In this document: positions 2,977 to 55,035 of the stretch, piece by piece
Layout: the number at the start of each line of letters is the position of its first letter
Numbering within the stretch: position 1 is the first letter of the stretch
NCBI GenBank assembly: GCA_963806265.1
Contig: CAWDXT010000030.1
Location: 21,407-85,406 of the forward strand
Reading direction: 5' to 3'
DNA: 64,000 bases
Origin: an uncultured Chloroflexia bacterium
Lineage (GTDB): Bacteria > Chloroflexota > Limnocylindria > Limnocylindrales > CSP1-4
Program-made: the position numbers and the translations under genes
Notes under the pieces: generated by a model
Seen by the model: the letters and a program-made list of their open reading frames with translations, nothing else
Database searches by the model: none
What the model was told of the DNA's origin: nothing

Positions 2977-3411
2977 TCAGTCGTCGGACGAGTCGTTGCC
3001 CCGGGTCGCGAGCAGCCGCGACACCAGCCGGCCCGCGCCGTAGCCGATCGCGATCGGCGCGTAGAACCAGACGGTGGCGATCACGCCCGAGATCGGATCG
3101 ACGGGGACCGGATCGCCGATGCCGAACGAGAGCACCAGGATCGCCGACATCCCGATCAGGGCCCCCACGAAGGTGATCATCAGGCCCGTCCAACCGCGCG
3201 ACGCGATGCCCGCGATCACCCCCGCGGCGAGCAGCAGCACGGGCGAGATGACGATCGCGTTGAGGGCGCACGAGGGATCGAAGCCCTGGCCGACGCAGCC
3301 CAGCATCGAGCCGCCGAACAGCGCAAGCGGACAGGCGACCGCGGTCACAACCAGGGCGAGCGCGTCGCGAAGGAGGCTGAAGCGCGGCTCGGGGGAGGCG
3401 GTGTCAGTCAC
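2977..3411 (-). CDS. Hypothetical membrane protein (about 4 TM); last gene of the cytochrome operon
   Basis: 144-aa hydrophobic ORF; its GTG start overlaps a TGA at 3408-3411 (translational coupling). Confidence 0.6.
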   Translation of the reverse strand: MTDTASPEPRFSLLRDALALVVTAVACPLALFGGSMLGCVGQGFDPSCALNAIVISPVLLLAAGVIAGIASRGWTGLMITFVGALIGMSAILVLSFGIGDPVPVDPISGVIATVWFYAPIAIGYGAGRLVSRLLATRGNDSSDD

Positions 3412-4161
3412 GAGCCCATGATTCCCGGACCGTCGTCGGCCGTCGGTAGGGCCAAAGGTCCCGACGGGTCAGCCGGAGCCTGCCGAGGCGGACGTACCCT
3501 GGCTCGGCGACGGGATCGCGACCGCACCTGCCACCGGGCTCGCGACCGGGCTGGGATCGGCGCTCGGGCTCTCGAACAGGTACGTGAACTCGGGTCCGTT
3601 GTGGCAGATCCAGCAGTTGTCACCGCGGCCCTTCATCGAGTCGGGCAGCGGCGCGTGCTCGTCGACGCCGTGGCACGTCGTGCACGGCTGGGCGTTGCCC
3701 ATGTGCTCAGGTCGCAGGGGCGCGTGGGTGGTCGCCGAGTCGGCGGATGGCACCTTGTGACAGACGAGGCAGTCGTCCTTGTGCAGGCCCGAGTGACCGG
3801 GCGCCGTTGCCACCAGGCTGCCGGTCGAATGGCAGGCGGTGCAGTCGCGCCAGCCCCACAGCGGATGGGCCATCTCAGGGATGTCCTTGGTGCCCACCGT
3901 GCCGTTCGTGGTGACGTGACACGCTGCGCAATCGGCGTTGGCCGACATCTGGATCCCGATCGGGGAGTCTGCCATCGGCGACAGCGAGGTGGCAGACGGT
4001 TCGACCGACGGCGTCGGCGTCGGCGCCGACCGCACGCTGCTCGATCGGGAGACGTCCGGCAGCGCGACCGTCAGCAGGAACACGGCCAGCGCGACGATGG
4101 CGATCAGCATGGCGGCGATCGCAGCTCGATACCCGTAGCGCGAGACCCCGGTGCGGATCAT
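3408..4161 (-). CDS. Membrane-anchored pentaheme cytochrome c; probable C-terminal indel (ORF as given stops at 3469)
   Basis: N-terminal TM/signal, Pro/Ser/Thr linker, five CxxCH (CAACH, CTACH, CLVCH, CTTCH, CWICH); an alternate frame ends at the GTGA overlap at 3408. Confidence 0.85.
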
Positions 4162-5633
4162 GACCGCACCTCCGTCTCGCCGCTCGCCAGGGTCTCGGGC
4201 CCGGGTTCCGCTGTCGGCGACGCATCGGCGACGACCGGGTCAGGATCCACGTCCGGCGTCTCCACGGCGACCACCGGCCCGGCGACGGTGAGCTGCCCAG
4301 GCTCCATCGCCGGTGCGGCGACCTGGGCCATCGGCAGCGCAACGGCCACGAGCGCAGCCTCCGCGTGGGGCTCGGCGTGCTTGAGCCATGGCCAGGGCCA
4401 GTTGATGTGCTCGTCGTCCTCGCCCATGTCGAGGTACCGCTCGGCGAGCGTGTACACCAGGGCGAACAGCGCCACGGCACCCGCCATGATGGCGATCTCG
4501 ACGGGCGACGGGACATAGCTCACGAACGGGCTCGCGACCATGCCTGCGTGCGCCGTGATGGGGGCGATCTGGCCGGCCGTCACGAACAGGAAGCGGTCCA
4601 CGAACACGCCACCCAGGGCGAGCACGCCGGCAGCGAACAGGCCCGCCGGGGTCCGGGTCGTGGGCAGCAGCACGAGCACCAGCGGGATCGCCAGGCCGAC
4701 GATCACTCGCAGCACCCAGAACGGCACCGCCAGCGGCCCGGTGACCAGGGCGGCCGTGGCCTCGCGGAGACCGGCGGTGTCGTCGGTCAGGCCCACGAAC
4801 AGCTGCCGTGCCAGCAGCAGCGACACGATCATCAGCGCGATCGCGAGCAGCAGCCGGATCGACGGGATCGCCACCCCCAGCGCTCGCTCGTGGTCCTGGA
4901 GGCGGAACCGCGCCACGAGATAGAACACGATGCCCAGCAGCGCGGTGCCGGCCAGGTACGCGGCCGCGACCATCATCAGGACCGTGAACGGCCCGTTCCA
5001 GAAGGCCTTGGCCGCCAGCACCCCGAACACGGCTCCCAGCGTCGACGGCGCGAGAACCGCGGTGCAGGTCGCGGTCGTGCATGCGTACTGGTGGATCTTC
5101 GGGTGGTGGAAGAACATGCTCCAGACCTCGACCAGGAGCACGACCAGGTAGATCCCGTAGAACACGCCCATCCACCACATCGGCGAGCTGGGCGACGGCA
5201 CCAGCACGGCGCCGAACACCATCCGCACGGGGTAGTGGAGGTCGAGCGCGATGATCCCGAACGCGGTCGTGAGGCTGAGCACGGCCAGGATGGCGTGGCG
5301 CTTCTCGAGCGGGCGGAACCGCTCGATGCCGAACACCGTGCCCAGCGACGACGCGAGGCACAGGCCGCTCGTCATCACCGCGAAGAACACGTAGCCGACG
5401 ATCAGCAGGCCCCACTCGAAGCTGGGGCTGGTGCCGAGCACCTCCCAGCCGGGCGGGATGGCGATCAGCGCCGCCACCGCGCCGACGGCGATCACCGCGG
5501 ACAGGCCCGCCAGCCACAGCCGAAGGCCGAGCGACATCCCGCGCACCTCGCGCGCCAGCGCGCGGCTGGCGGCCCGGGGCCCGATGGGGACGACGCGTCC
5601 GTGGAGCGTGAGGGTGAGCTCGGTCGCCTGCAT
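4158..5633 (-). CDS. NrfD/PsrC/DsrP-family quinol-interacting membrane subunit
   Basis: WGLLIVGYVFFA...LDLHYPVRM...SPSSPMWW...GGVFVDRFLFVTAGQ and YVPSPVEIAI; about 10 TM; ATG at 5633 just after the Fe-S gene stop. Confidence 0.85.
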   Translation of the reverse strand: MQATELTLTLHGRVVPIGPRAASRALAREVRGMSLGLRLWLAGLSAVIAVGAVAALIAIPPGWEVLGTSPSFEWGLLIVGYVFFAVMTSGLCLASSLGTVFGIERFRPLEKRHAILAVLSLTTAFGIIALDLHYPVRMVFGAVLVPSPSSPMWWMGVFYGIYLVVLLVEVWSMFFHHPKIHQYACTTATCTAVLAPSTLGAVFGVLAAKAFWNGPFTVLMMVAAAYLAGTALLGIVFYLVARFRLQDHERALGVAIPSIRLLLAIALMIVSLLLARQLFVGLTDDTAGLREATAALVTGPLAVPFWVLRVIVGLAIPLVLVLLPTTRTPAGLFAAGVLALGGVFVDRFLFVTAGQIAPITAHAGMVASPFVSYVPSPVEIAIMAGAVALFALVYTLAERYLDMGEDDEHINWPWPWLKHAEPHAEAALVAVALPMAQVAAPAMEPGQLTVAGPVVAVETPDVDPDPVVADASPTAEPGPETLASGETEVRS

Positions 5634-5635
5634 CC

Positions 5636-6717
5636 TCAGGCCTCCTGGATCGCCGGACCGAGATACAGCACCCGTGGCCGGGTTCCGTACTCGGGGTGGA
5701 GCGGTTGCGGACCCTGCTGGGCGACGAGCGCCGCGATGTCCGCGTCGGTGTTCGCGTCCCCGAACTGCCGGGCGCCGACCGGGCAGACCTCGACGCAGGC
5801 CGGCTTCTGACCCTTGCTGATCCGGTGGTAGCACCACGTGCACTTGTCGGCGATGCCGGGCATGTCGTTCGGGTTGTCGCCTCCGGCCGGGGTCAGGTAG
5901 CGCGCGCCGTATGGGCAGGCGACGACGCAGTAGCCACAGCCGATGCAGCGGCGAGGATCGACCAGGATCACCCCGTCCTCGGACTTGTAGGTCGCACCGA
6001 CCGGGCACACCGCGGTGCACGGCGAGTCCTCGCACTGCATGCACAGGCGTGGGACGAAGAACGAGGCCTCGACGGCCTTGCCGGCCGCGCCCGGGGCGGT
6101 GGACTGGGCGGGGAAGCCGTTCATGCCCGCCTCGGGCGAGTCGACGTACAGCGCACCGTCCTCGGTCATCACGTGGCGCTCGACCCAGGTCCGCGTGTAC
6201 TCGGCCTCCTCGGCCACGTGGTTCTCCTCCTTGCACGCGACGACGCACAGCCCGCAGCCGATGCATGACGGCCGTGTCCACGACGAACGTCCAGGCCTTG
6301 CCGGCCGGGTCATAGGTCGGGACGATCGGGCTGGCCGCGTCGGACGAGTCATCGAACACGGGCACCAGGCGCGAGAGTCCGGCCGCGCCGACCATGCCCC
6401 CGGCCAGGACGAGCCCGAAGCCAAGGAACGCGCGCCGGCTCAGCGACGCTTCGGTGATGGCCGGTGCGATCTCCTCGAGCGGCACCAGGGCCGCCGGGTC
6501 TGGCGCGGTCTCGGGACGGGGCGGCGCTGCGCCGATCGAGCCGGTCGCGGGCAGGGCAGCAGGGCTGATCACGGACGCGGCTGCGGTCGTTGCCGGCCGG
6601 TGCCGTCTCCGCCGGTGCGGTGTCTGCCGGTGCCGTCGCCGGCGTCGGGGTCGGTTCGACGTCAGGCGTCGGGGTCGGTTCGACGTGAGGCGTCGGGGTC
6701 GGCGTCGCGTCGCTCAT
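5636..6717 (-). CDS. NrfC/DmsB/DsrO-like 4x[4Fe-4S] protein with Tat signal; indels near 6575 and 6268
   Basis: SRRAFLGFG twin-arginine motif; CIGCGLCVVAC, CMQCEDSPCTAVCP, CIGCGYCVVACP, KCTWC...PACVEVCP; ATG at 6717 overlaps the upstream TGA and is followed by a Pro/Thr-rich N-terminus. Confidence 0.85.
6641..6703. repeat. 24-bp tandem repeat (about 2.5 copies) encoding a PTPTP(H/D)VE low-complexity N-terminus
   Basis: ggcgtcggggtcggttcgacgt(c/g)a repeated. Confidence 0.7.
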
Positions 6718-7398
6718 CGCGTTCCCTCGTCGGTGGCGGGTCCGCGGCCGGCCGCGTGGCAGTCGAGGCAGGCCTCGTCGCTCTCGACGACCGGGTGGCG
6801 CTGGTTGCGCGCCTTGAAGCCGTCGGGGCCATGGCAGGTGAGACATGGCGGCAGGTCGTCGAGCGGGTGGAGGACGACCGGCGGCCGGTTTGCGACCGCC
6901 GTGTGCGGGTCATGGCACGCGAGGCACTCGGATACGTAGTGCTGGATCGAGACGATCTGGGCCTGGCTATCCGGTCGCCCCTCGGTGAACACATGGCACC
7001 GGACGCAGACCTCGTCGGTCGGCACCGCCACCGCCACCGTGCTCGTGTCGGCGCGCTCGCCGGCATCGACATGGGCCTGCAGCGGGCCGTGGCAGCTCTG
7101 GCAGCCGATGTCGGCATGACTGCCGGACGGCGAGCCTGGTCGACTCGGGCTCGTGGCATCGGGCACACGTGGACGAGCTGGCGAAGGTCACGTCGAGCGC
7201 GGCCCACGACCGGGCGTCGACGTCGCGATGCAGGCTGAAGTCGAGGTACGGGTTCCATGCCATGACCGCGCCGGCGAACAGAGCCACCGACAGCAGCAAC
7301 GACCCACCGACGAGCGCGGCGACCGCAAGCATCCGCTCTCGGCGCGTGCGCGGTCGAACGCTGGCCCACAGCGCGCGCAGGCGATCCGTCGCGCTCAC
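6714..7398 (-). CDS. Membrane-anchored hexaheme cytochrome c; indel near 7127
   Basis: N-terminal TM, then CARCH, CQSCH, CVRCH, CLACH, CLTCH, CLDCH; GTG start overlaps the regulator TGA at 7395-7398. Confidence 0.85.
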
Positions 7399-8120
7399 AG
7401 CGTGGACGGGTTGAGGATCCCGCGGCGAACGGAGTAGCGCAGCAGCTCCACGCGGTCGTGGAGCCCCAGCTTCTCCATCGCGCTCGCGCGATGGGAATGG
7501 ATGGTCTGCTCGGAGAGCTTGAGCGAGCGGGCGATGTCGCGATTGGTGTGACCCATCGCAGCAAGCAGCAGGACCTCGCGCTCGCGCGGGGTCAGCGTGT
7601 CGTACGGGTCCTCGAACGCGGCAGCCGGGTTCTGGCGCACGTAGGTGTCGATCATGCGGGTGACGATCCCGGGGCTGACATAGGTGTGGCCGGCGGCCAC
7701 GCCCCGGATCGCGGACAGCACGTCGGCCTCCGTCGCCTCGCGCGTCAGGTAGCCGTTCGCGCCCGCCTTGAGGGCGACCGAGAACTGCTCCGCGGCACAC
7801 CGGCAGTCGAGGGCGATGATCCGGGTCGCGGGACAGGTCTCCCGGAGCTGCTCGAGCATCTCGAAGCCCGGGCAGCTGCCGCCACCGAGCGGCTCGCATT
7901 CGGTGACGACGACGTCCGGCGCGATCGCGCGGATCTGCTCGATGAGCGGCTGCGCGGCGTCGATCTCACCGGCCAGGCTCAGGTCCGGCTCGCGGTCGAT
8001 CACGGCCCGAAACGCGCCCTGGAGCATGGGGAAGTCCACGAACGCCAGCAGGATCGAAAGCTGGTCGCTCGCCCCGGAGCCGTCGCCGTGGGCGCCGGTC
8101 GCGGGCGCTGTGGTGGTCAT
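7395..8120 (-). CDS. NarL/LuxR-family response regulator with atypical (pseudo-)receiver domain
   Basis: C-terminal LTPREREVL...GHTNRDIA...LSEQTIHSHR HTH; the receiver has VVVTE at the phospho-Asp site, LDCRC at the Thr site and YLTRE at the Lys site. Confidence 0.85.
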   Translation of the reverse strand: MTTTAPATGAHGDGSGASDQLSILLAFVDFPMLQGAFRAVIDREPDLSLAGEIDAAQPLIEQIRAIAPDVVVTECEPLGGGSCPGFEMLEQLRETCPATRIIALDCRCAAEQFSVALKAGANGYLTREATEADVLSAIRGVAAGHTYVSPGIVTRMIDTYVRQNPAAAFEDPYDTLTPREREVLLLAAMGHTNRDIARSLKLSEQTIHSHRASAMEKLGLHDRVELLRYSVRRGILNPSTL

Positions 8121-8464
8121 CTGGTGGTCAACGTGCCTGCGGGCCCGGTGTCGCCGGGTCCGTGGTGGCGGATGACCGCCGCCCAGCCGAACGGCATCAG
8201 GAGCATGAACGCGGTCACGCCCACGGCGCCCACGATCGTTGCCGCCGACCCGAACGTGAAGTAGAGAAGGTGGAGCAGCACGAAGGCTGCCGCCGAACCG
8301 ACCCACAGCGTGAGCGTGACGAGCAGCAGCCACGTGGCAACGCGCGCACCGCGCCCCCCCTTGGACCCATACCAGAACCATGCGACGATGCCGATCATTC
8401 CCTCGACGAGGATCACGATCGGCAGCAGCAGTGCCAGATCCTCGGTCAGCTGTGACAGCTGCAT
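8117..8464 (-). CDS. Small hypothetical membrane protein (about 3 TM); first gene of the cytochrome operon
   Basis: 115-aa hydrophobic ORF with GGAGG/GGGAG upstream of ATG 8464; stop overlaps the regulator ATG. Confidence 0.65.
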   Translation of the reverse strand: MQLSQLTEDLALLLPIVILVEGMIGIVAWFWYGSKGGRGARVATWLLLVTLTLWVGSAAAFVLLHLLYFTFGSAATIVGAVGVTAFMLLMPFGWAAVIRHHGPGDTGPAGTLTTR

Positions 8465-34909: not shown

Positions 34910-35962
34910 ATGAGCAACGTCGGCCGATTCGGCGTCTTCCTGCCGTCCTACATCTGGGAGGGCGACGGCGCCGAACGCGCCCGGGGAATCAAGTCCTTCG
35001 CGCGCGAGGTCGAGGAGCTGGGCTTCGACTCCCTGTTCATCACGGACCACCTGCTCGCGGCCCGTCGCTTCTACTCCGTGAACTGGCTGGAGCCGCTGAC
35101 GAGCCTGGCCGTGGCGGCGGGCGTCACCGAGCGGGTCCGGCTCGGGACGTCGATCCTGATCATGCCGCTGCGCAACCCGGTGATCCTGGCCAAGGAGCTG
35201 GCGACGCTCCAGTTCCTGTCCGACAACCGGGTCATCCTCGGCGCGGGCGTGGGCTGGAACGAGGCCGAGTACGAGGCGGTCGGCGTGCACAAGTCGGAGC
35301 GCGGCCGCCGCACCGACGAGATGCTCGACATCATGATGCCGCTGCTCGAGGGCGAGACCGTCACCTACCACGGCCGCTACTACTCGGTGGACGACGTGTT
35401 CATCGAGCCGCGGACGGCACAGCGGCCCGAGCTCTGGATCGGCGGCGGATCCCAGCTGGCCGATCCCAAGTCGCCGGACCTGCCCCGGTTCGTCGAGTCG
35501 GTCAAGGCGCGCACCGTCCGCATCGGACGGCTGGATCCCGCGGCCGACCTGCCCGCCCGACGACATCGCCCGCGACTGGACGGAGCTCCAGGCCTACTAT
35601 CGCGAGCACGGCCGCGACCCCGCGACGAGCGCGTGGTCGCGCACGAGAACTTCCTCCACCTGGTGCTGACCAACGACCCGGCCAAGGCCCGCGAGGAGCA
35701 GCACCGCGCGTTCCTCAAGGTCATGAGCACCGAGCGCGGGCCGAGCAGTACCTCGAGTCCGTCTACCTGTTCGGCACGCCGGACGAGATCGTCGCCTCGC
35801 TCCAGGCGCGGGTCGACGCCGGGCGTCGAGTACTTCATCCTCCACACCATGACGCCCGACCCGGCGCAGCTCCGGCACTGGGTGGACGAGATCATCCCCA
35901 ACGTCACCTTCCCGCCCACCGCCGGGCCGGTCCGGCCGCGGTCGGCCCCGGTCGTCGCGTGA
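34910..35962 (+). CDS. Luciferase-like (LLM) flavin/F420-dependent oxidoreductase; indels
   Basis: GFDSLFITDH, EPLTSLAVAAGVTERVRLGTSIL...RNPVILAK, GAGVGWNEAEY, LWIGG. Confidence 0.85.
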   Translation: MSNVGRFGVFLPSYIWEGDGAERARGIKSFAREVEELGFDSLFITDHLLAARRFYSVNWLEPLTSLAVAAGVTERVRLGTSILIMPLRNPVILAKELATLQFLSDNRVILGAGVGWNEAEYEAVGVHKSERGRRTDEMLDIMMPLLEGETVTYHGRYYSVDDVFIEPRTAQRPELWIGGGSQLADPKSPDLPRFVESVKARTVRIGRLDPAADLPARRHRPRLDGAPGLLSRARPRPRDERVVAHENFLHLVLTNDPAKAREEQHRAFLKVMSTERGPSSTSSPSTCSARRTRSSPRSRRGSTPGVEYFILHTMTPDPAQLRHWVDEIIPNVTFPPTAGPVRPRSAPVVA

Positions 35963-35968
35963 CCGCCG

Positions 35969-36833
35969 ATGACCCGGCGCGTCGCGCCTGCTCGGCAAGC
36001 CGCTCCAGCGGCGCCATTCGCAGGTGATGCACGACGCCGCGTTCGACGCGGCCGGGATCGACGCCCGCTACGTCCTGCTCGAGCTCGAGCCGGGCGAGGT
36101 CGAGGCCGCCGTGGCCGAGGCGCGTGGCCCGGGCTGGCTGGGCCTCGGGCGTGACCGCGCCCTACAAGCGCGTCGTCGCCGGCCTGTGCGACGAGGTCGA
36201 GGACGGACGCCGGGCGATCGGCGCGGTCAACAACGTCGTGCGCACCGACGACGGTCGGCTGGTCGGGATCAACTCCGACGCGCCCGGGGTTCCGCGCCGG
36301 CGTCGAGCTCGCGATGGGCTTCCGATCCGGGGCGGCAACGTCGTCGTCGCCGGGGCCGGTGGTGCGGCCGACGCGGTCGTGTTCGCGTGCCTGCCGCGCG
36401 GGTGCGCGCCGGGTGACCGTCGGCAACCGGACGACCCGGCGCGGCCGAGGCGCTCGTGGCCCAGCTGCGACGGGCATCGGGCACACGTCGCTGCACGCCA
36501 CGGCGCTCGACGACGCCGCCTTCGACGAGGCGCTGGGGTCGGCGGACCTCGCCGTCAACGCCACCACCGTGGGCATGGTCGACCCGGGCATGACGATCGC
36601 GTGGACGCGCTGCCCGATTGGGCGACCGTGTTCGATCTCGTCTACGTCCCGCCCGAGACGCCGCTGCTCCGGGCGGCCCGGGCGCGAGGGCTGCGCGGCG
36701 GCAACGGATCGGAGATGCTCATCGCCCAGGCCGCGATCGCGTTCGAGCGCTGGACCGGCGTCGGGCGGCATGGCCGACGTCATGCGCGCGGCCGTCGCGC
36801 CGCTGCTCGCCGATCCGGCGCGCGGAGGCCTGA
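35969..36833 (+). CDS. Shikimate/quinate 5-dehydrogenase-family protein; several indels
   Basis: HSQVMHDAAF, VTAPYK, IGAVNN, INSDAPG, NATTVGM, FDLVYVP, MLIAQAAIAFERWTG. Confidence 0.8.
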
Positions 36834-36836
36834 CCG

Positions 36837-37711
36837 ATGCGTCTCGCGACGATCGTCGCCGATGGCGGCTGCCGTTCGCGCGGTCGTCGATGACGAGCGC
36901 GTGCTGCCACTGGTCGCGGTCGCCGGTGACGATGCCCCGCCCGACCGGCAGCGGCATCCGCGATCGCTGGCCGCCGGCGGGCACGCGGCCATCGGTCGCG
37001 TCCGGAGCTGGGCGGAGCGGCAGCCGGCGACGGCGTGGCAGCCGCTCGCCGACGCCCGACTCGGGCCGCCGTCCCGGACCCGGGCGCGATCTACACGGTC
37101 GGGCTGAACTACCGCGATCCCCGGCGCGCGCCGAGGCAGGCGCCGGACCGGCCGCTCGTCTACGGCAAGGCCGCCACATCGGTCGTCCGCCACGGCGCGG
37201 TCCTGACGTGGGACCGGGCGCTGACCGCCAACGTCGATGCCGAGGTCGAGCTGGGCGTCGTGATCGGCGAGCCGGCGTGGCGGGTGGCGCCCGCGTGACG
37301 CGATGCGCCATGTCTTCGGCTACACGTGCGTCAACGACGTCTCGTCGCGCGATCCGTGGCTCGACGGCGACCAGTGGCTGCTGGGCAAGTCGATGCCCGG
37401 GCTTCTGCCCGGTCGGCCCGTGGATCGTCACCGCCGACGAGCATCGACCCGGCCGAGCCTGCGCCTTGGCTGCACCATCAACGGCGAGCCGATCCAGGAC
37501 GGCACGCACCGCCGACATGCGGTTCTCCGTCGCCGAGGATCATCTCGTACCTCAGCCGGCACCTGGTGCTCCGGCCGGGCGACCTCATCGCGACCGGCAC
37601 CCCGGCCGGCTCGCAGGCGCCGCCCGGGACCGGACCGGCATCTCGAGACCGGCGACGAGGTCGTCGTGCTGGATCGAGGGCATCGGCGAGCTCACCACCA
37701 CCATCGCCTGA
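36837..37711 (+). CDS. Fumarylacetoacetate-hydrolase-family protein; several indels
   Basis: IYTVGLNY, LVYGK, DAEVELGVVIG, GYTCVNDVSSRD, WLLGKS, LRPGDLIATGTP. Confidence 0.8.
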
Positions 37712-37732
37712 CGACGAGCAAGGAGGCCGGCC

Positions 37733-38526
37733 GTGAAGCCCGCGACCGTGTTCCTGGGCGAGATGACGACGCTCGAGGTCGAGGCGTTCCTGCGAGAGCA
37801 CCAGACCGTGATCGTGCCGATCGGCTCGACCGAGCAGCACGGCCCGCACGGCGCCGCTGGCGACGGACGTCCTCGTCCCGACCGAGGTCGCCCGCCGGGT
37901 CGCGCCGCGGGTCGGGGCGCTCGTGGCGCCGGCCGGTCAACTACGGGCTGTCGTACCCGCATACCGGGTTCACGGGCGTCGTCCAGCTCCGGATCCCGAC
38001 GTTCATGGCCGTCATCGAGGACCTGTGCGCGTCGCTCGCGACCGTCGGGTTCACCCGGATCGTGTTCCTCAACGGCCACTACGACAACACGTATGCCATC
38101 GCCTACGCCTGCGCCAACGCCGCCGACCGGCCTGCCGGCGGGCGTGCGCGCCTTCCCGGTCAACTACTGGGACGGGATGACGCCCGACGAGGCGGCGGAG
38201 TACTTCGACCCGTCCAACGGGCTGCACGCCAACAAGGGCGAGACGGCGGCGGTGCTGGCGATCAACCCGGACCTCGTGGACATGGAGCGGGCGAACGTCG
38301 AGTTCCCGCCCTTCCCCGAGGTCACGAACGCGGCCGCCGTGCACACCGCGTTCTTCTTCTCGGCCCCGGGCTCGGTCTACCGCGCGACCCATTCGGGCAC
38401 CTGGGGCGACGCCCGCGAGGCCACGCCCGAGTTCGGCGAGCGCTACCTCGACGGTCGTCGACCGAGGCGACGATCCGGCTGCTCGACGACGTCGAGCGGA
38501 CGTTCGCCGCGATGCCGCCGCGCTGA
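37733..38526 (+). CDS. Creatininase-family cyclic amidohydrolase; indels
   Basis: VPIGSTEQHGPH, TDVL, FLNGHYDN, HANKGETA, GTWGDA. Confidence 0.8.
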
Positions 38527-38667
38527 GCTCGAGAGCCGCACGAGCCGCCCGGCGGACAGGTTGCCGCGGGGCTGGCAACGTCGGGACAGGGACTGACCCC
38601 GGCCGGACCCCGGCCGCCGGCAATCCCTTCCGGCGGTAGGCTGAGGCGATGATCAGGCATCGCACCC

Positions 38668-39591
38668 ATGAGCACCGTTGTCGTCGCCCTTCCCGATCTC
38701 CCGGAGCTGCGGCACCTCGGTGAGCTGCCCGACAGACGTCGAGGTCGTCCTTGCCCCGGAGGGCGGCCCACGCCCGACCTGTCGCGCGTCGATCTCGCCG
38801 TCCCCACCCGCTGGCTGCGGCGACCGCTGCTCGATGCGATCGGATCGCTGGGCCACCTGCGGGTGATCCAGACGCTGAGCGCGGGGTCGACTGGCTCGTC
38901 GGCCGGGTGCCGGAGCGGATCAGGTGTGCAATGCGCGCGGCGTGTACGACGTGCCGCTGGCGGAATGGGTTGTGGGCTCGATCCTTGCGATGCAGCCGCG
39001 GTCTCGTGGACGCGCGTGACGCGCAGGCGAGCGGCGAGTGGGTCGATCTCGTGCCGGGTGAGCTCGCCGGCCGGCGGGTCGTGATCCTGGGCTTCGGCTC
39101 GATCGGCGCGACCGTCGCTGATCGGCTGGCGCCGCTCGAGGTGGAGATCGTGGGCGTGGCGCGCTCGCCTCGGGACGGTGTTGCCGGCATGGACGAGCTC
39201 GACGGTCTTCTGCCCGACGGCCGAGATCCTGGTCGACCTGCTGCCGCTCACGAGCGAGACGGCGGGCTTCCTCGACGGGCGCCGGCTCGGGTTGCTGCCG
39301 GACGGCGCGCTCGTCGTCAACGCGGGCCGCGGCCGCACCGTGGATACCGAGGCGCTGGTGACGGAGCTGCGGTCGGGCCGGCTCCGGGCCGCGCTTGATG
39401 TCACCGACCCCGAACCGCTGCCCGCGGGCCACCCCCTGTGGGCGCTGCCCAACGCGCTGATCACGCCGCACATCGCCGGCGACTCGCCCGAGGCGGAGGT
39501 GCGGGCATTCCGGCTGGCCGGCGACCAGATCCGGCGGTTCGCGGCCGGCGAGCCCCTGATCAACCAGGTACCCCGCTACCTGCTGCGCTGA
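38668..39591 (+). CDS. D-isomer-specific 2-hydroxyacid dehydrogenase; indels
   Basis: [46 protein letters not shown]. Confidence 0.85.
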
Positions 39592-46484: not shown

Positions 46485-47654
46485 ATGATCACCGAGCAAC
46501 ACCTCACCTTCGGCTTCCCCCGCATGTACAACGAGCCCGGCGAGCGCCGCGCATTCCTGCCCGGCCTGATCGGGCTGATCGCGGACATGGGTGTGGACGT
46601 GTACATCGAGGCGGGCTACGGCTCTGCCATGGGCATCGACGACGAGCACTACCTCGAAGCATCGCCCAACGTGCATGTCGTCGACGAGGCGACGGCCTAC
46701 CAGCAGGAGGCGGTGGTCATCCTGCGCGCTCCCGAGGGTCGCTACGAGCTGCTCCGCCCGGGCGCGATCCTGCTCTCGATGCTGCACTTCACGACCCGGC
46801 CCGAACGGGTCGAGCTTCTTCACCAGCTGCGCATCGAAGCCGTGGCGCTCGACATGGTCACCGGCGATGACGGCCGGCGTCTGGTGCAGAACCTGCGCGA
46901 TGTGGCCCGCAACGGCCTGGCCACCGCGTTCGACGCGCTGGAGGAGCGGTGGCCGCCGCTCATGTCCGGGGATCGCGACCCTGTCTCGGTCACCATCCTC
47001 GGGGCCGGTGGTGTCGGCAAGCACGCCATCGAATGGGCCGCAAGGGCCGGCGACGAGGAGCGCAACCAGCAGCTGATGCGCGACGGGCTGCCCGGGGTCG
47101 AGGTCGTGGTCGCCGAGCAGAACCTCGCCGGCAACGAGGCGTACTTCCGCCGCCGATTCGAGCGAACCGACATCCTCGTCGATGCCACGGCGCGGCCGGA
47201 CACCTCGAAGCCGCTGTTTCCGAACAGCTGGCTGCGCTGGCTGCCCGAGCATGCCGTGATCTGCGATCTGTCCGTGGACCCGTACCTCCCCAACGATGAC
47301 CCGCCGGTCGTCAAGGGCATCGAGGGCATCCCCCAGGGCAACCTCGATCAGTGGGTGTTCGATCCCGACGACCCCGCGTGGGATCGCCTTCCCCCCGGTG
47401 TGCCAACGACCAACCGGCGAACCGTTGTCTCCTGCTACTCATGGCCCGGCGTGCGCCCGAAGGAGTGCATGGAGGAATATGGGTCACAGGTGACCCCGCT
47501 GCTCAAGACGCTCGTCTGGTACGGCGGGTTGGCGGCGATCAGGCCCGACGTCTCGTTCCACGGTCGTGCGCTGTGGCGCGGCAGCCTCCGCAGGTTCCTC
47601 GGGGAGCCGCCCGTTCCGCGTCTCGCCGCCGCCTCGAGCCTGCTGCCCGGCTGA
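46485..47654 (+). CDS. AlaDH/PNT-superfamily dehydrogenase (N5-carboxyethylornithine synthase / saccharopine-DH-like)
   Basis: FPRMYNEPGERRAFLP, IEAGYG, LLSMLH, ILGAGGVG, CDLSVDP, SWPGVRP. Confidence 0.7.
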   Translation: MITEQHLTFGFPRMYNEPGERRAFLPGLIGLIADMGVDVYIEAGYGSAMGIDDEHYLEASPNVHVVDEATAYQQEAVVILRAPEGRYELLRPGAILLSMLHFTTRPERVELLHQLRIEAVALDMVTGDDGRRLVQNLRDVARNGLATAFDALEERWPPLMSGDRDPVSVTILGAGGVGKHAIEWAARAGDEERNQQLMRDGLPGVEVVVAEQNLAGNEAYFRRRFERTDILVDATARPDTSKPLFPNSWLRWLPEHAVICDLSVDPYLPNDDPPVVKGIEGIPQGNLDQWVFDPDDPAWDRLPPGVPTTNRRTVVSCYSWPGVRPKECMEEYGSQVTPLLKTLVWYGGLAAIRPDVSFHGRALWRGSLRRFLGEPPVPRLAAASSLLPG

Positions 47655-47780
47655 TCCCCGGCCGGCGTCCCGACCCGGGCTGCGCCGCGGTCTGAGCCCC
47701 CGACCCGCATTCCAGCACGCGGTGCTCCGGCAGGCGTCCCGCACCGGCACGCGGTACCGCTCCTCAGCCCTTGGAGCCTT

Positions 47781-47971
47781 CGATCTATTGGTGACACGAT
47801 TAGAAAGGCACCAGTCCGATGCCCTGTCGACGCCGGTGTCCGCGCATGTCCCTGCCCAGGCCGCTTTGATACCTGCCGAGCATGCATAACCCGCTGCGTC
47901 AGGCGCACCAGCGAAGATCGGGCGCCGAACGAAGCGTTTGGCACCTGGCTAAGGGTGTCACCCATATCTCG
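47781..47971. repeat. 191-bp intergenic element bounded by 33-bp imperfect inverted repeats
   Basis: 47781-47813 matches the reverse complement of 47939-47971 at 24/33 positions; core TATtGGTGACACgaTTAG vs TATgGGTGACACccTTAG. Confidence 0.55.
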
Positions 47972-48287
47972 TCCGCCACGGGCCGCCCGCCTCGCCATGG
48001 ATCGCCACGGATCGCGTTGCCGGCCCGCCCCACCTATCGGCGCCGCCGACTTGCGCTCCGGCACACCGATCGCCAGCCAGCGGCCATCCCCGGAACGCCC
48101 GCCAGGCAGCGCTGCTCGTGTCGGGGCGACCTCGAGGATGACGAGCTGCTGGGACGACGGGGCGACGGGCTGCCGGGACGAAGGAGCGACGGGACGACGC
48201 GGGTGGTCGTCTGATTGGCAGGCGGCTTCCGGCGGCGTGCTGTCGATCAAACCGCGCTCGATACCGTGGGGTAATCTGCGGGGCACC

Positions 48288-51200
48288 GTGACCTGTCCCA
48301 GCTGCGGAACCTCCAATCCGGCCGAGAGTCGTTTCTGCCTCGAATGCGGCACGCCTCTTGGCGGCTGCCCGTCGTGTGGCACGGTCAATCCACCGACGGC
48401 CAAGTTCTGCGGCAACTGTGGAACGCGGCTGTCACCGACGGCCGTTGCCGGCCTGGGCGGCCCACTGGCGACCGTGCCGCTTGGTGCCGTCCCAGGCGGA
48501 GCCACCCCAGGCGCAGCCACCGCCAGCAGCGCTGTCCCCAGCGGCGCCACCCCCGAAGCTTCCGTCCCCGGCGTGACCGCGCACCACGCGACGGCAGCCA
48601 GCCCGACAGCCCTCACCTCGCCCTGGGACCCCACCACCACGACCGAGCGCCGGATGGTCAGCGTGCTGTTCGCGGACCTCGTCGGCTTCACGGCGCTGTC
48701 CGCGTCCCGCGATCCCGAGGCCATCCGTGACATCCAGGACCGCTACTTCGAGCACACGAGCGAGATCATCAGCCGCTACGGCGGCACCGTGGAGAAGTTC
48801 ATCGGCGACGCGGTGATGGCGATGTGGGGCGCCCCGGTCGCGCACGAGGACGATGCCGAGCGCGCGGTCCGGGCGGCGCTCGACCTCGTGGACATGATCC
48901 CTGCGCTCGGGCGCGAGGCCGGCGTCGACCTCCAGCTCCGTGCAGGTGTGCTGACCGGCGAGGCGGCGGTCGGCCTCGGTGGCGAGGGCCAGGGGATGGT
49001 CACCGGAGACATGGTCAACACGGCATCCCGTCTTCAGTCGGTGGCGGCCCCCGGCACCGTGCTCGTCGGCGCTGACACGCGCCTCGCCGCCGAGTCCGCG
49101 ATCGCGTTCGAGCCGGCTGGAGACCAGGAGCTGAAGGGCAAGCCGGCCCCAGTGCCGTCCTGGCGCGCGGTTCGAGTCCTCGCAGAGCGCGGCGGCGCCC
49201 GTCGGTCGGATGCGCTCGAGCCGCCGTTCGTGGGCCGGGCGGAGGAGCTCCAATTCCTCAAGGAGCAGTTTCACGCGACTGGCCGCGAGCAGCGGGCTCG
49301 GCTGATCTCGCTGGTCGGCCAGGCCGGGATCGGCAAGACGCGACTCGCCTGGGAGCTCGAGAAGTACCTCGACGGCGTGGTCGAGAACGTCTATTGGCAC
49401 CGGGGCCGAGCGCCCTCGTACGGCGAAGGGGTCACATTCTGGGCGCTGAGCGAGATGATCCGCCGGCGGGCGGGCCTGGCTGAGGGGGACGACCCGGAGA
49501 CGACCCGCAGCGCGGTCGCGGCCATGGTCGCGGAGCACGTCCCGGATCCGGCCGAACGCGCCTGGATCGAACCTCGTCTGAACACCCTGCTGGGAGTGGC
49601 CGATTCCGTCTCCGGCGGGCACGAGGAGCTGTTTGCCGCCTGGCGCACGTTCTTCGAGCGGCTGGCGAAGGGCGGTACGGTGGCGCTCGTGATCGAGGAC
49701 CTGCAGTGGTCCGACGATGGCCTGCTCGACTTCCTCGAGCACCTGCTCGACTGGGCGCGCACCAGCCCCATCTTCGTGCTCACCCTCGGGCGTCCCGAGC
49801 TGCTCGAACGACGTCCTGGCTGGGGCTCCAACCGCCGCGGCGCGGTCTCGATGCGCCTCGAGCCACTCACCGACGAGGCCATTCGCGAGCTGCTCAAGGG
49901 CCTGGTCCCCGGTTTGCCCGAGTCGATCGTTCGGCGCGTCGTCGAGCGGGCGGACGGCATCCCGCTGTATGCGGTTGAAACCGTCAGGATGCTGCAGGCA
50001 TCGGGCCGGCTGGTCGAGCGGGACGGTCGCCTGACGGCGGCAGCCTCCATCGCCGAGCTCGAGGTCCCGCCCACGCTCCACGCGCTCGTTGCGGCGCGAC
50101 TCGACGGACTACCTCCGGGCGATCGGTCACTGCTCCAGGCCGCAGCGGTGCTGGGCCAGTCATTCACCGCGGAGGCACTGTCGGCGATGACCGGCGACCC
50201 GGTGGATGAGCTCGCGCAACGCCTCACATCGCTGGTCCGCCGCGAGGTGCTGACGATCGAGACCGATCCACGCGCACCGACCCGCGGACAGTACGCGTTT
50301 GTCCAGGGCCTCGTCCGCGAGGTTGCGTACTCAACGCTCTCCCGGCGGGATCGTCGAGCGCGCCATCTGACGGCCGCCCGCTACTTCGAGACCCTGGTTG
50401 ACGAGGAGCTCGCGGGGGCGGTCGCAACGCACTTCGTGGCCGCCTATCGTGCGGCCCCGGACGGGCCCGAGGGCGAGGCCGTCGGCAACCAGGCGCGGAT
50501 CGCGCTGCTCGCCACGGCGGATCGTGCCGAGCGGCTGGGTGCCCTGACGCAGGCGATCGAGGCGCTGCGCCAGGCGGCGGAGGTCAGTCGTGAGCCAACG
50601 GCGCGTGCCCTGATCCTCGAGCGGCTGGGCGGGATCTCCACCGAAGCGTCACGCGTCGACGATAGCGCTGCCGCGCTCAATGAGGCCATCGGCCTGTTCG
50701 AGCAGGCCGGCGACCGGGTGGGCGTCATCCGGGCGACGGCCTGGCTCGTGCTGGCCTACCAGGCGGCTGGACGGATCGCGGAGGCGGAGGACCAGGCCGC
50801 TGCGATCGAAGGCGAGGGCGAGGCGCTCGTCGACGCGGTCATCGAGACCGGCGCACTGGCCGATCGGACACGAGGAGAGGCGGCTGCCATCTTCGCCGAG
50901 TCTGTCGGCCGGCTGCGGTTCCGTCAGCAGGCATTCGACGACTCGATCGCGTGGTGTGACCGGGCGCTCCGCCTGGCGGGCCCGCTACGGTTGGACGCGG
51001 TGATCGCGCAGGCGCTGACGACCAAGGGCACCGCGCTCGGCGTGGGCGGCCGTCATCGCGAGGGTGCCGCCCTGCTGCAGGGCGCCCTGCTCGATTCGCG
51101 GGCACACGGCGTCCATGATGCGGCCCTGCGCGCGACGAACAACCTCGCATCCTTCCTGACCAGGACCGATCCGCGTGCAGCGCTGGAACGGGTGCGCGAG

Positions 51201-52178: not shown

Positions 52179-52658
52179 ATGCCCACGGTCGATGCGGCCA
52201 TCAACGACTTCCTGGACCACAGGCGCATCGCCGTCGCCGGCGTCTCGCGCGATCCGAAGGGCCCCCACGGCGGCAACGTCGTCTATCGTCGGTTGAAGGA
52301 GCGAGGCTACGAGGTGTTCGCGGTCAACCCGAACGCGGACATGGTCGAAGGCGACCGGTGCTACCGGAACCTGGCCGCGATCCCGGGTGGCGTCGATGGC
52401 GTCGTGATCGCAACGACGCCCGCGGTCGCACCCTCGGTCGTGGCCGAGTGCAAGGAGCTGGGGATCAGCCGAGTGTGGATGCACCGCTCGTTCGGCGGCG
52501 GCAGCGTCTCGAAGGAGGCGCACGAGGATTGTCGGGCGAACGGCATCACGTGCATCGCCGGCGGCTGCCCGCTGATGTACGGGCCAACGTCGGACGGCGG
52601 CCACCGCTTCATGCGCCGTATCGCCGGCCTGATCGGCGCGCTGCCCCGGCAGGTCTGA
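52179..52658 (+). CDS. CoA-binding protein (YccU-like)
   Basis: IAVAGVSRDP, YEVFAVNP, VWMHRSFGGGS, GGCPLMY; AAGGAG RBS. Confidence 0.85.
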   Translation: MPTVDAAINDFLDHRRIAVAGVSRDPKGPHGGNVVYRRLKERGYEVFAVNPNADMVEGDRCYRNLAAIPGGVDGVVIATTPAVAPSVVAECKELGISRVWMHRSFGGGSVSKEAHEDCRANGITCIAGGCPLMYGPTSDGGHRFMRRIAGLIGALPRQV

Positions 52659-52807
52659 CGGGCGCCGAACCCAAACCAGTGGGCGGTCGCGCCAGGGCGG
52701 CACAGGGCGAGCCGACCCAATCGGAGGTCCTTCGCGAGCGCTTCTCGCGGGTTCCCTGGCGCCGGGCCCTTGGCGACGCGATCCGCGGCATGGCCGGTCG
52801 CGGGCCG

Positions 52808-54109
52808 ATGGCGCTTCCGAACCGGCTCGAGGGCGCCGTGCTCGGCCAGCTGGTCGCGGCGGTCGGTGGTGACGATGAGAGCGGTGGCACCCTGCTCGAC
52901 GAGCTCGAGATGCTGCTGGACCGTTTCGGGTCGCCTGGGCAGCGGACGGCCGCCACCTCGCCCTCGCGGCGCATCGCCCCCTCGCCCGACCTCGCTCTCG
53001 CCGCAGCCCTTGTCCTGCGCGATTCGCCGGTCGCCGAGATGGCCGCGTCGGCGGTGTCCGCGGCGAGCGGTCCGTCCGCGGATCCATCCGCCGCCGAGAG
53101 CGCCCTGCTGTATGCGCTGGTCGTTCGGCGCATCGTCCGGGGCGAACGCAACCGGCGTTCGGCACTGGCTCACGCCCGCCGGGATGCGACTCGGCAGGAC
53201 GTCGGTCCCGTCCGAGGCGTGACGGGGGCGGGCACGGCCACGATCTTCGAGACGGCATGGCGCCCGTTCGAGCGTGCGAGCGATGCGCTCGACGCCCTGG
53301 GGGGAGCCGCTGCCATAGGCACGTCCGGCTCTGCCCCCGGCACCTCCGGCACTGCGCCCGGCGCTTCAGGCAACGCCCTCGGCGCTTCCCGCGCCGCCGC
53401 GGTGGCGATGGTCGGCGGGCTCGCGGGCGGCCTGTGGGGAAGCTCCGGTCTTCCGGTCGCGGCACGCGGGTGCGTCGCAGCATCCGCGCGGGCGCGGCAG
53501 CTCGTCGATCGGCTCATCGAGACCGATGACCCGGCGCGGGATGGACGCGCGTGGCAGACCTCGACCTCGGCCCCGCTTGAGGTGTGTCGTGTCGATGTGT
53601 CGGGCGCCGAGCCTGCGGTTGGCGGTTGGATCGGGATCACGCCGCTGCCCGGCCGGCGGTACGTCGCGTACCACACCGGTGCGCATTGGCGCGACCTCGA
53701 CACCGACGTCCGGCGGCTTCGCGCGCTGGGCACCGATCTCGTGTTCCTGCTCGTCGAGGACCGGGAGCTCGTCCGGTGCCGCGTCACCGGGATCGCGAAC
53801 GTGCTGGGCGATCACGGCATCGCCGTCGTGTGGCACCCGATCCGCGACCCGCTGGTGCCACGCGATCTGCCCGGCTTCCGAGCGGCCGTCAGCGCGGTGC
53901 TCGGGGAGGTTCGCCGTGGCCGGCACGTCGCCGTCGTCTGCCGCGGGGGTCTCGATCGATCCGGCATGGCCGCCGCGTGCCTGCTTCGGGAGGCGGGTCT
54001 CGATGGCCCCACGTCGATCGAGCGCGTCCAGGTGGCCCGGCCCGGCGCGCTCGCTCTGCCCGATCAGCAGGCGTTCGTCCGAGCCTGGCCGGTCTCCGCG
54101 AGCAGCTGA
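52808..54109 (+). CDS. Degenerate ADP-ribosylglycohydrolase-like domain fused to a CDKN3/dual-specificity Cys phosphatase
   Basis: RLEGAVLG and VGGLAGGLWG...LP frame the ARH-like part; WQTSTSAPLEV, RDLDTDVRRL, HPIRD and the CX5R loop VCRGGLDRSG. Confidence 0.7.
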   Translation: MALPNRLEGAVLGQLVAAVGGDDESGGTLLDELEMLLDRFGSPGQRTAATSPSRRIAPSPDLALAAALVLRDSPVAEMAASAVSAASGPSADPSAAESALLYALVVRRIVRGERNRRSALAHARRDATRQDVGPVRGVTGAGTATIFETAWRPFERASDALDALGGAAAIGTSGSAPGTSGTAPGASGNALGASRAAAVAMVGGLAGGLWGSSGLPVAARGCVAASARARQLVDRLIETDDPARDGRAWQTSTSAPLEVCRVDVSGAEPAVGGWIGITPLPGRRYVAYHTGAHWRDLDTDVRRLRALGTDLVFLLVEDRELVRCRVTGIANVLGDHGIAVVWHPIRDPLVPRDLPGFRAAVSAVLGEVRRGRHVAVVCRGGLDRSGMAAACLLREAGLDGPTSIERVQVARPGALALPDQQAFVRAWPVSASS

Positions 54110-54329
54110 GGCGGCCCGGCGCGCGGGAGCCGATCCGTCGTCCCCGGTTCGGCGGACAAGACCCAGGCTCGACCAGCAGAGGCCGCTCAAATGCTGCGAA
54201 GCAGGGCGAGGCGCATACTCCGCGTGCCGGACGGCGGAGGGGTCGAGGCCGAGGCCCGGGGAGCCCGTGGGGCGAGATGGGCCCGTGGGACGAGAGGAGC
54301 CTGTGGAGCAAGCACATACACCCGGGTTG

Positions 54330-54956: not shown

Positions 54957-55035
54957 CTGACCCGGCGGACCGCCCCCGGACGGTGGCGCACGAGGTTCGC
55001 GAGCCGGGATGGGTCGCGCCGGGCCCGGAGCCCCG

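Follow-up and report, generated by a model that had tools for sequence, protein, structure and literature searches.

Integral membrane proteins of the NrfD family are listed, in a review of that family, as parts of alternative complex III (ACIII) and of the Psr, Nrf, Dsr, Qrc, Nhc, Hyb and other complexes. Trios of an outer-face cytochrome c, an NrfC-like iron–sulfur (FeS) protein and an NrfD-like protein occur in DsrMKJOP, as DsrJOP, and in QrcABCD, as QrcACD. In the E. coli-type NrfABCD system, NrfC and NrfD follow an NrfB-like multihaem cytochrome (NrfBCD) and act as quinol dehydrogenase for a periplasmic partner, and ACIII (ActABCDEF, with the core ActA-ActB2-ActC) combines an anchored multihaem cytochrome, a poly-[4Fe-4S] subunit exported by twin-arginine translocation (Tat) and a cofactor-free quinol subunit of the NrfD type with ten transmembrane segments. 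A trio of cytochrome, FeS protein and NrfD also occurs as Geobacter Cbc4 (CbcSTU). Units of NrfD, FeS protein and multihaem cytochromes have been proposed as menaquinol:cytochrome c oxidoreductases in Methanoperedenaceae groups 4/5 (PMC7327174), and units of this kind have been given the same proposed role in MBNT15 and Melioribacter (PMC9386147); in these proposals electrons are carried out of the membrane. The operon analysed here lies on the minus strand at positions 2977-8464 of a 64,000-nucleotide stretch of contig CAWDXT010000030.1 (assembly GCA_963806265.1), the whole of which is called the window below, from an uncultured bacterium of the class Limnocylindria in the Chloroflexota. Soils, sediments and lakes harbour Limnocylindria (Ellin6529/CSP1-4) in abundance, and to our knowledge none has been cultured. 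The operon encodes an NrfC-type and an NrfD-type protein between two different membrane-anchored multihaem cytochromes, and it is probably the quinone-interacting module of a multi-locus extracytoplasmic haem network. For the full explanation, in which this module couples quinone to the haem network and electrons are exported outward, a probability of about 0.6 is given.

The cytochrome, NrfC and NrfD core and its closest described systems

Calling of open reading frames (ORFs) and family searches placed seven genes in the operon, numbered g1 to g7 from its first gene, and the preliminary description of seven co-oriented genes with these products was upheld by the ORFs, the family matches and the counts of transmembrane segments and motifs. 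The four core genes are g3 (6714..7398), encoding a hexahaem c-type cytochrome of the NrfB/MtrA type with six CxxCH motifs behind a single N-terminal transmembrane helix; g4 (5636..6716), encoding an NrfC-type protein with a twin-arginine motif and 16 cysteines in four [4Fe-4S]-binding groups; g5 (4158..5633), encoding an NrfD-family integral membrane protein of 491 aa with ten transmembrane segments and a low-complexity, acidic C-terminal tail, which is unbroken in this assembly and is presumed to hold the quinone/quinol site of the module; and g6 (3469..4161), encoding a pentahaem c-type cytochrome with five CxxCH motifs, one transmembrane anchor, a Pro/Ser/Thr linker of ~35 aa and a P/S/A-rich C-terminal tail. 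The Tat motif on the NrfC-type protein and the single N-terminal anchors of both cytochromes are outward topology signals. Only seven ORFs with at least two CxxCH motifs were found in the 3.1 Mb assembly, so that the clustering of the cytochrome genes is more than chance. Genes for molybdopterin, hydrogenase or NrfA subunits were absent from the operon, as had been claimed, and from its borders as well. Cofactor loading, complex formation, the direction of flow and the end acceptor are points that we infer from these sequence features.

The NrfD-type protein was placed by means of hidden Markov model (HMM) cut-offs, a fold search and a tree labelled by gene context. It matched Pfam NrfD (PF03916) with 93.7 bits against a cut-off of 25.8, over profile positions 2-310 of 313, contained no CxxCH motif and was the only NrfD of the assembly. 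Its scores stayed below the cut-offs of all curated equivalogs, with NCBIfam DsrP at 37.4 bits (cut-off 350) and QrcD at 37.2 bits (cut-off 570), and searches of PDB sequences with the single sequence and with a profile gave no match. An AF2 model with a predicted local distance difference test (pLDDT) score of 78 had chains of ActC as its four best Foldseek matches in the PDB (6btm_C, 8k9e_C, 6lod_C and 6f0k_C; template modelling (TM) scores of 0.64-0.71, E values of 1e-9 to 3e-8), ahead of ActF and of PsrC with its eight transmembrane segments, a resemblance that is one of fold only, at 14-15% identity. The NrfC-type protein matched Pfam Fer4_11 (79.5 bits) and, in NCBIfam, DsrO (162.4 bits, cut-off 200) and TtrB (152 bits); among PDB sequences it was closest to PsrB (2vpw_B, 1.6e-41), whereas chains of ActB were found at only ~1e-18. 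The hexahaem cytochrome had a DmsE-family decahaem protein as its best NCBIfam match (48 bits, below the cut-off), and its profile had its best PDB match in 6r2q_A (E 6.9e-7), which we take to be MtrA of MtrCAB; the database copy used labels this chain otherwise. The pentahaem cytochrome matched Pfam Cytochrome_C7 with 32.6 bits and gave insignificant matches only in the PDB.

Compared with the described systems, the operon shares the ten-transmembrane-segment subunit of ACIII, at the level of fold only, but it has no ActB with the molybdopterin-like B1 domain and no ActD, ActE or ActF: the NrfC-type protein has ~330 aa, carries Fer4 domains only and has PsrB, DsrO and TtrB as closer matches than ActB, and a single NrfD is encoded. 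The best curated HMM matches are those to Dsr and Qrc, all of them below the equivalog cut-offs. For DsrMKJOP, the DsrO and DsrP scores given above are accompanied by the absence of DsrM- and DsrK-like genes in or beside the operon, and DsrJ is trihaem as against the hexahaem cytochrome here, in an aerobe-capable Chloroflexota host. For QrcABCD, the low QrcD score goes with a QrcC score of 101.3 bits (cut-off 400) and with the absence of a QrcB-type molybdopterin gene from 80 related loci. The NrfABCD equivalogs were equally distant (TIGR03146 NrfB, 21.4 against 166.6 bits; TIGR03149 NrfC, 118.9 against 377.6 bits; no NrfD equivalog match), and the operon differs from NrfBCD in the ten transmembrane segments of its NrfD and in its additional membrane-anchored cytochrome. 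The co-encoded molybdopterin subunit of the complex iron–sulfur molybdoenzymes (Psr/Ttr/Dms/Fqo) was likewise absent from the 80 loci. What the operon does match, as a genomic class only, is the multihaem cytochrome-FeS-NrfD module, in which NrfD, NrfC and multihaem genes adjoin with no catalytic subunit. The units of Methanoperedenaceae, MBNT15 and Melioribacter, which are likewise predictions only, resemble it in having an NrfD-like protein, a 4Fe-4S protein and multihaem cytochromes with no catalytic subunit, a comparison made by gene content. From these the Limnocylindria operon differs in its two transmembrane-anchored cytochromes, in its pseudo-receiver regulator and in its links to a cluster with NHL, TPR, System II and decahaem genes and to a hydrogenase. 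It offers a minimal complex around an ActC-like NrfD, in which the molybdopterin-like subunit is missing.

The 80 related loci were taken from species-representative genomes; all the genomes compared in this work are metagenome-assembled genomes (MAGs). The order hexahaem-NrfC-NrfD-second cytochrome was held wherever the contig reaches, and the synteny check therefore returned a colinear core in which neither the operon nor its flanks contained a catalytic subunit or molybdopterin gene; clustering of the flanking ORFs gave only aldo/keto reductase, PreA, NCS1 permease, MtnA and transporters. A missing catalytic subunit, consistently co-located in relatives, had been considered in the preliminary description, and none was present in the 80 loci or in the locus of the nearest relative outside the class, so that the cytochrome, FeS and NrfD unit holds across relatives as a unit with no catalytic subunit. 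Six CxxCH motifs were kept in 65 of 66 orthologues of the hexahaem cytochrome, and the second cytochrome carried five (58 loci), seven (8 loci) or eight (5 loci) haems. In one short-read Chloroflexota MAG (L075, 474-~2370) the hexahaem cytochrome was fused to 18 more CxxCH motifs, giving 24 in total in 632 aa, which suggests a haem wire joined to the NrfCD module.

NrfD orthologues (E < 1e-160) were confined to the class Limnocylindria, being present in 20 of the 24 congeners first sampled and in 0 of 16 streamlined genomes from the sister family. The named homologues and related contigs belonged to soil, sediment and lake MAGs, labelled either 'Candidatus Limnocylindrales/Limnocylindria' or simply Chloroflexota. 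Outside the class, the nearest relative (G323; locus L124, G323:C27 3320-8815) had the order histidine kinase (HK), response regulator (RR), small receiver, hexahaem, NrfC and NrfD, and another distant member of the Chloroflexota (G206; locus L127, G206:C5) had HK-RR-octahaem-NrfC-NrfD, whereas G194 and G239, together with a paralogue within the genus, represented ordinary molybdopterin-NrfC-NrfD enzymes. In the small context-labelled NrfD tree the Limnocylindria sequences formed a clade with the hexahaem-linked NrfD of G323 (99/96 support), and the molybdoenzyme-linked NrfDs branched far from it. Since G323 and G206 carry HK and RR genes next to the cytochrome, NrfC and NrfD genes, these arrangements suggest that the two-component system now found in the partner cluster described below may once have been attached directly to the NrfCD trio.

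The statement of the preliminary description that the host is a monoderm was supported by the outer-membrane marker Omp85/BamA, which was not found in 25 of 26 congeners and was detected in all seven diderm controls. A preprint on the Chloroflexi supergroup also described the same lineage as monoderm (10.1101/2021.08.23.457424).

Association with a second cytochrome cluster and a hydrogenase

A second multihaem cytochrome cluster was found in the same genome at 141-158 kb of contig C27. It encodes a GAF histidine kinase, a canonical NarL regulator and a small pseudo-receiver protein; a Tat-exported Rieske protein, two TPR proteins and an NHL propeller; a frame-broken hexahaem cytochrome and a cytochrome with a very long, PT-rich Pro/Ser/Thr linker; the System II proteins ResB, CcsA and ResA; and a decahaem cytochrome with a NapC/NirT N-terminal region. 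Its distribution was compared with that of the operon in a fixed sample of 151 genomes of the class, each at least 80% complete. The NrfD orthologue was present in 13 of the 151 genomes and the decahaem cytochrome in exactly the same 13 (13/13 against 0/138; Fisher p = 5e-19, uncorrected for phylogeny and based on MAGs). The 13 carriers belong to seven genera in two families, and at least four genera hold both carriers and non-carriers. In one genome (G332) the core genes were found inside a cluster of the C27 type, all in one orientation, in the order HK-RR-pseudo-receiver-TPR-NHL-hexahaem-PT-rich cytochrome-[hexahaem-NrfC-NrfD-heptahaem]-TPR-ResB-CcsA-ResA-decahaem, and in two others (G384 and G427) the operon and the C27-type cluster adjoin. 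The 'stand-alone' module of the preliminary description was not borne out by this identical distribution and by the G332 arrangement, and it is from them that the probable role as quinone-interacting module of a larger network is drawn. Of the maturation genes, ResB, CcsA and ResA lie in the C27 cluster and a second ResB on contig C20. Mere dependence of the cytochromes on maturation genes was ruled out as the reason for the co-occurrence, since ResB was present in 73 of the 151 genomes and the genome studied has its second copy.

A single further multihaem ORF was found in the assembly, the heptahaem cytochrome gene at C32:35276-36085, which is a paralogue of g6. It is the last gene of a hydrogenase operon (C32:35276-40757) that encodes the small and large subunits of a Tat-exported [NiFe] hydrogenase, a b-type cytochrome (HupC; Pfam cytochrome b, 104.8 bits), a maturation protease and then the heptahaem cytochrome with its transmembrane anchor. 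The order hupC-hyaD-heptahaem was kept in 20 of 20 congeners examined, and the heptahaem gene was missing from the four congeners that have no NrfD. HupL was found in 15 of the 151 class genomes, namely in 12 of the 13 operon carriers and in 3 of the 138 others (p = 3e-14, uncorrected for phylogeny). Dependence of the hydrogenase on the NrfD of the operon, as in Hyd-2 HybAB, was ruled out, since a cytochrome b is already encoded among the hup genes. It is unusual for one hydrogenase to come with cytochromes of both the b and the c type.

In its make-up the partner cluster is similar to the undecahaem electron transfer (Uet) cluster of Tenderiales, in which multihaem cytochromes, NHL and TPR proteins and CcsA/CcsB are encoded and for which ACIII was proposed as the quinone entry (10.1101/2022.05.06.490989). 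The likeness, which includes the dedicated maturation proteins, was drawn at the level of the gene recipe. The two also differ: Uet belongs to a diderm, includes an outer-membrane beta-barrel and was proposed for electron uptake, whereas Limnocylindria have no outer membrane and their NrfCD module is part of the cluster or co-inherited with it.

Proposed electron path and its alternatives

Taken together, these loci suggest a path in which menaquinol would bind to the ten-segment NrfD, similar to ActC and DsrP, close to the outer side of the membrane. The Tat-exported NrfC-type subunit would take up the electrons from NrfD through its four [4Fe-4S] clusters and hand them to the anchored, NrfB/MtrA-like hexahaem and the stalked pentahaem cytochromes on the outer face. 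Onward transfer would lead to the NapC-type decahaem, the PT-rich cytochrome, the second hexahaem and the heptahaem cytochrome, a network that may be organised with the NHL and TPR proteins and matured by its dedicated System II. The net flow would most probably be outward, from menaquinol by way of cytochromes at the surface to an acceptor outside the cell or at the wall, and the menaquinol may be supplied, among other sources, by the Tat-exported [NiFe] uptake hydrogenase HupSL-HupC, which would complete a redox loop. As a putative function of the operon system, extracellular electron transfer is plausible, and the motivation for it is stronger than before. Given the role of the operon as a quinone module, the outward direction is somewhat favoured over the inward one.

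The main rival, considered unlikely, has the electrons running the other way, with the operon acting as a Qrc-like cytochrome:menaquinone oxidoreductase. The donors would then be the hydrogenase, by way of the heptahaem cytochrome, or extracellular Fe(II) or reduced humics, by way of the surface cytochromes, and electrons would enter menaquinone through NrfC and NrfD, possibly driven by or coupled to proton movement in NrfD. This is consistent with the NCBIfam matches to QrcD and QrcC, weak as they are, and with QrcA being a hexahaem too (PMC13059093, PMC6303296). The conservation of the heptahaem gene as the last hup gene in the 20 congeners suggests an exchange between the hydrogenase and c-type cytochromes, and the partner cluster, which contains a Rieske protein, resembles the Uet cluster proposed for uptake. 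However, the hydrogenase has a cytochrome b of its own that would serve to reduce quinone, so that a Qrc-like bypass is unneeded; there is no QrcB-like subunit, QrcC and QrcD score far under the cut-offs, and the fold of the NrfD-type protein is nearest to ActC, a quinol oxidiser.

Several points weigh against the outward path as a whole. The direction of flow is unreadable from sequence, and Qrc, which is one of two equally weak curated HMM matches, works in the direction from cytochrome to menaquinone. A candidate quinol dehydrogenase, the NapC-type decahaem cytochrome, is already present in the partner cluster besides its Rieske protein, which leaves the need for a second quinone module unexplained. 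The p-values of the co-occurrences ignore phylogeny and rest on MAGs, the AlphaFold model of the hexahaem cytochrome (pLDDT 57) was too poor for a fold search, and the copy of the operon studied here is non-functional if the three frame breaks described below are real.

Transfer to an enzyme encoded elsewhere, with the operon as an NrfBCD-like donor for a soluble or lipoprotein acceptor and no extracellular electron transfer, is the least probable of the alternatives considered. The succession of an NrfB-like cytochrome, NrfC and NrfD mirrors the E. coli NrfBCD that feeds NrfA, and candidate acceptors are encoded in the genome: a NirK-like copper nitrite reductase, predicted as a Tat lipoprotein (C4:11651-13018), a multicopper oxidase with a Tat lipoprotein signal (C15:150321-151733) and a dihaem CCP/MauG-like protein on contig C22; a monohaem class I cytochrome c was not seen in the assembly. 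However, the distribution of NirK was unrelated to that of the operon: 6 of the 13 operon genomes had no match at E <= 1e-40, by which NirK was ruled out as a fixed partner, and close NirK orthologues (at least 67% identity) were confined to one other genus of the class. The feeding of an unlinked reductase, as offered in the preliminary description, thus found no support in NirK, the only one of these candidate acceptors to be profiled. Beyond the cytochromes described, no NrfA-like ORF with at least four CxxCH motifs was present, a weak negative in view of the incomplete assembly, and the perfect co-occurrence is with the cytochrome/NHL/TPR cluster and not with an enzyme. A function of the operon as the sole replacement of complex III was also ruled out, because cytochrome b complexes and haem-copper oxidases are encoded in the genus as well (cytochrome b in 24 of 26 and COX1 in 23 of 26 congeners).

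A broader proposal, held tentatively, is that three loci form a co-inherited package in a subset of the class, which would give monoderms a route, not described before, for extracellular electron transfer or uptake linked to hydrogen. Its members would be the NrfCD/hexahaem/pentahaem operon, the decahaem/NHL/TPR/PT-rich cytochrome/Rieske/System II cluster and the Tat-exported [NiFe] hydrogenase with its heptahaem cytochrome, and in its design membrane-anchored cytochromes on Pro/Ser/Thr stalks might take the place of a porin-cytochrome conduit. The papers found describe Limnocylindria as aerobic or gas-oxidising heterotrophs with the cytochrome loci unmentioned, and searches on Limnocylindria/Ellin6529 gave no description of these loci. 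Compared with the described systems, the new elements are the lineage, a pair of anchored cytochromes, a regulator of the pseudo-receiver kind and the close association of three loci in one package. If true, the package would be an anaerobic respiratory option, possibly linked to minerals or humics, for part of the class, and would bear on the cycling of iron, manganese and hydrogen in soils. The operon would offer a monoderm design for moving electrons across the cell wall, and the 13/13 co-occurrence and the G332 fusion provide concrete gene sets that can be tested.

Frame breaks, regulator and remaining features

The motifs of the hexahaem cytochrome and of the NrfC-type protein are all present, as had been described, but in this assembly they are obtained only when the genes are read through frame breaks that the preliminary description did not mention. 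In g3, the CxxCH motifs are split between two frames, with one motif before the break and five after it, and comparison with the intact gene of a related genome (G010) placed a 1-nt insertion near 7127. In g4, the same comparison placed a 1-nt insertion near 6266, and a further break must lie at ~6530-6600, within the repeats of the N-terminal extension. For g4 the start codon that is conserved is the ATG overlapping the stop codon of g3, with GGAACGCGATGAGCGAC identical in the closest relatives, and the third break follows from the difference between the frame of this start and that of the twin-arginine motif. The closest relative, whose NrfD is 86% identical and whose operon has the same neighbours, shows no break in any of the seven genes or in PreA, and its NrfC-type protein has 326-332 aa.

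Assembly error, in the form of long-read indels, very probably accounts for the three breaks. Segmentation of the assembly by a Viterbi model of the phase of G+C content at third codon positions (GC3) yielded at least 361 candidate frame breaks, or 1.16 per 10 kb over 3.1 Mb, of which 11 fall in the window. The frame switches inspected split ordinary genes, namely PreA, a DapA-like gene and two large AAA/LuxR-type regulators, and the PreA and DapA-like genes are unbroken in relatives. The completeness given by CheckM is 62.7% despite 3.1 Mb in 38 contigs, a score that indel frame breaks probably explain. Among the 80 loci, frame changes in the core genes occurred in 8 of 43 from the MFD series, which was taken as the long-read set from its record and contig names, and in 0 of 37 from other assemblies (p = 0.006), and in the other MAGs they fall at differing positions within the four core genes. 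Assembly error is favoured because of the number of candidates genome-wide, the low completeness, the intact closest relatives and this contrast between assembly types. Programmed frameshifting was ruled out, since the closest relatives are unbroken and the positions differ in other MAGs. Other breaks in ordinary genes of the window lie at ~919, ~26889, ~31092, ~40619 and ~43653.

Decay of the operon into a pseudogene cluster in this genome, with real breaks and whatever function in relatives, is improbable. It would agree with the occurrence of three breaks within ~1.9 kb of two adjoining genes and with the fact that neither located insertion lies in a homopolymer. Against it stand the candidate breaks across the assembly, which include housekeeping genes intact in relatives, the low completeness, and the concentration of core-gene breaks in long-read loci, at differing positions; moreover, in-frame stops, deletions and lost motifs were absent from the operon, and the other cytochrome loci are kept. 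If the breaks are assembly errors, this assembly and similar long-read MAGs contain many frame errors able to mimic pseudogenes.

The N-terminal extension of the NrfC-type protein, which precedes the Tat motif (6600-6716) and is predicted to lie on the cytoplasmic side, consists of variable low-complexity tandem repeats. The repeat unit is a 24-nt TP(H/D)VEPTP unit here, an 18-nt unit in the closest relatives and an (EA)n run in G010; the length of the extension ranged from 19 to about 190 aa across relatives (including L014, 5631-7091) and differed by one unit between the near-identical assemblies L133 and L134.

The second gene of the operon, g2 (7395..8120), encodes a NarL/LuxR-type regulator with a pseudo-receiver domain. 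It matched Pfam GerE with 68 bits and Response_reg with 31.1 bits, just above the cut-off of 30.2, and all NCBIfam response-regulator equivalogs were far below their cut-offs. The phospho-Asp, Thr/Ser and Lys of a canonical NarL-type receiver are not kept in it: the phospho-Asp is replaced by Glu, T87 by Asp and K109 by Arg. Among the orthologues the replacement of Asp by Glu was found in 56 of 61, that of Thr by Asp or Glu in 61 of 61 and that of Lys by Arg in 61 of 61, and four cysteines were kept in at least 54 of the 61. The regulator probably controls the operon in a manner that does not involve phosphorylation, and this residue pattern suggests a phosphorylation-independent sensor, perhaps a thiol- or metal-based one.

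The regulator is preceded by g1 (8117..8464), which encodes a protein of 115 aa with three hydrophobic/transmembrane segments, has a GGGAGG-type ribosome-binding site upstream and gave no family match in Pfam and NCBIfam searches; at least 41 related loci have it upstream of g2, and g1 and g2 together stood upstream of the core in most of the 80. At the other end, g7 (2977..3411) encodes a protein with three to four transmembrane segments and no Pfam or NCBIfam match, and lies outside the conserved core. The preliminary description had counted it as a member of the operon, and it does adjoin g6 here, but the adjacency was found only in the closest relatives (L024-L026, L090, L133/L134); elsewhere g7 was absent, several kb off or upstream of g2. 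In a divergent subgroup (L081, L087, L093 and L100; about 4800-5140) a g7-like gene occupied the place of g1 upstream of g2, and a second g2-like regulator was present 3' of the second cytochrome. The coupling of most of the genes by (A/G)TGA overlaps stood for four of the six junctions (g1/g2 ATGA, g2/g3 GTGA, g3/g4 ATGA and g5/g6 ATGA, the g3/g4 overlap being counted with the conserved g4 start), but not for g4/g5, with a gap of 2 nt, and g6/g7, with a gap of 57 nt.

The operon is bordered upstream by a divergent MarR gene and a ClC channel and downstream by an alpha/beta hydrolase and a PreA-like dehydrogenase. A promoter and terminator scan gave nothing above shuffled sequences, a TGTATCG palindrome was not found near the operon, and Rfam and tRNA scans of the window gave no match. 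Elsewhere in the window, the long stretches at 35960-39167, 47615-48610 and 52656-55450 were classed as non-coding by the GC3-phase model despite a G+C content of 72-75%.

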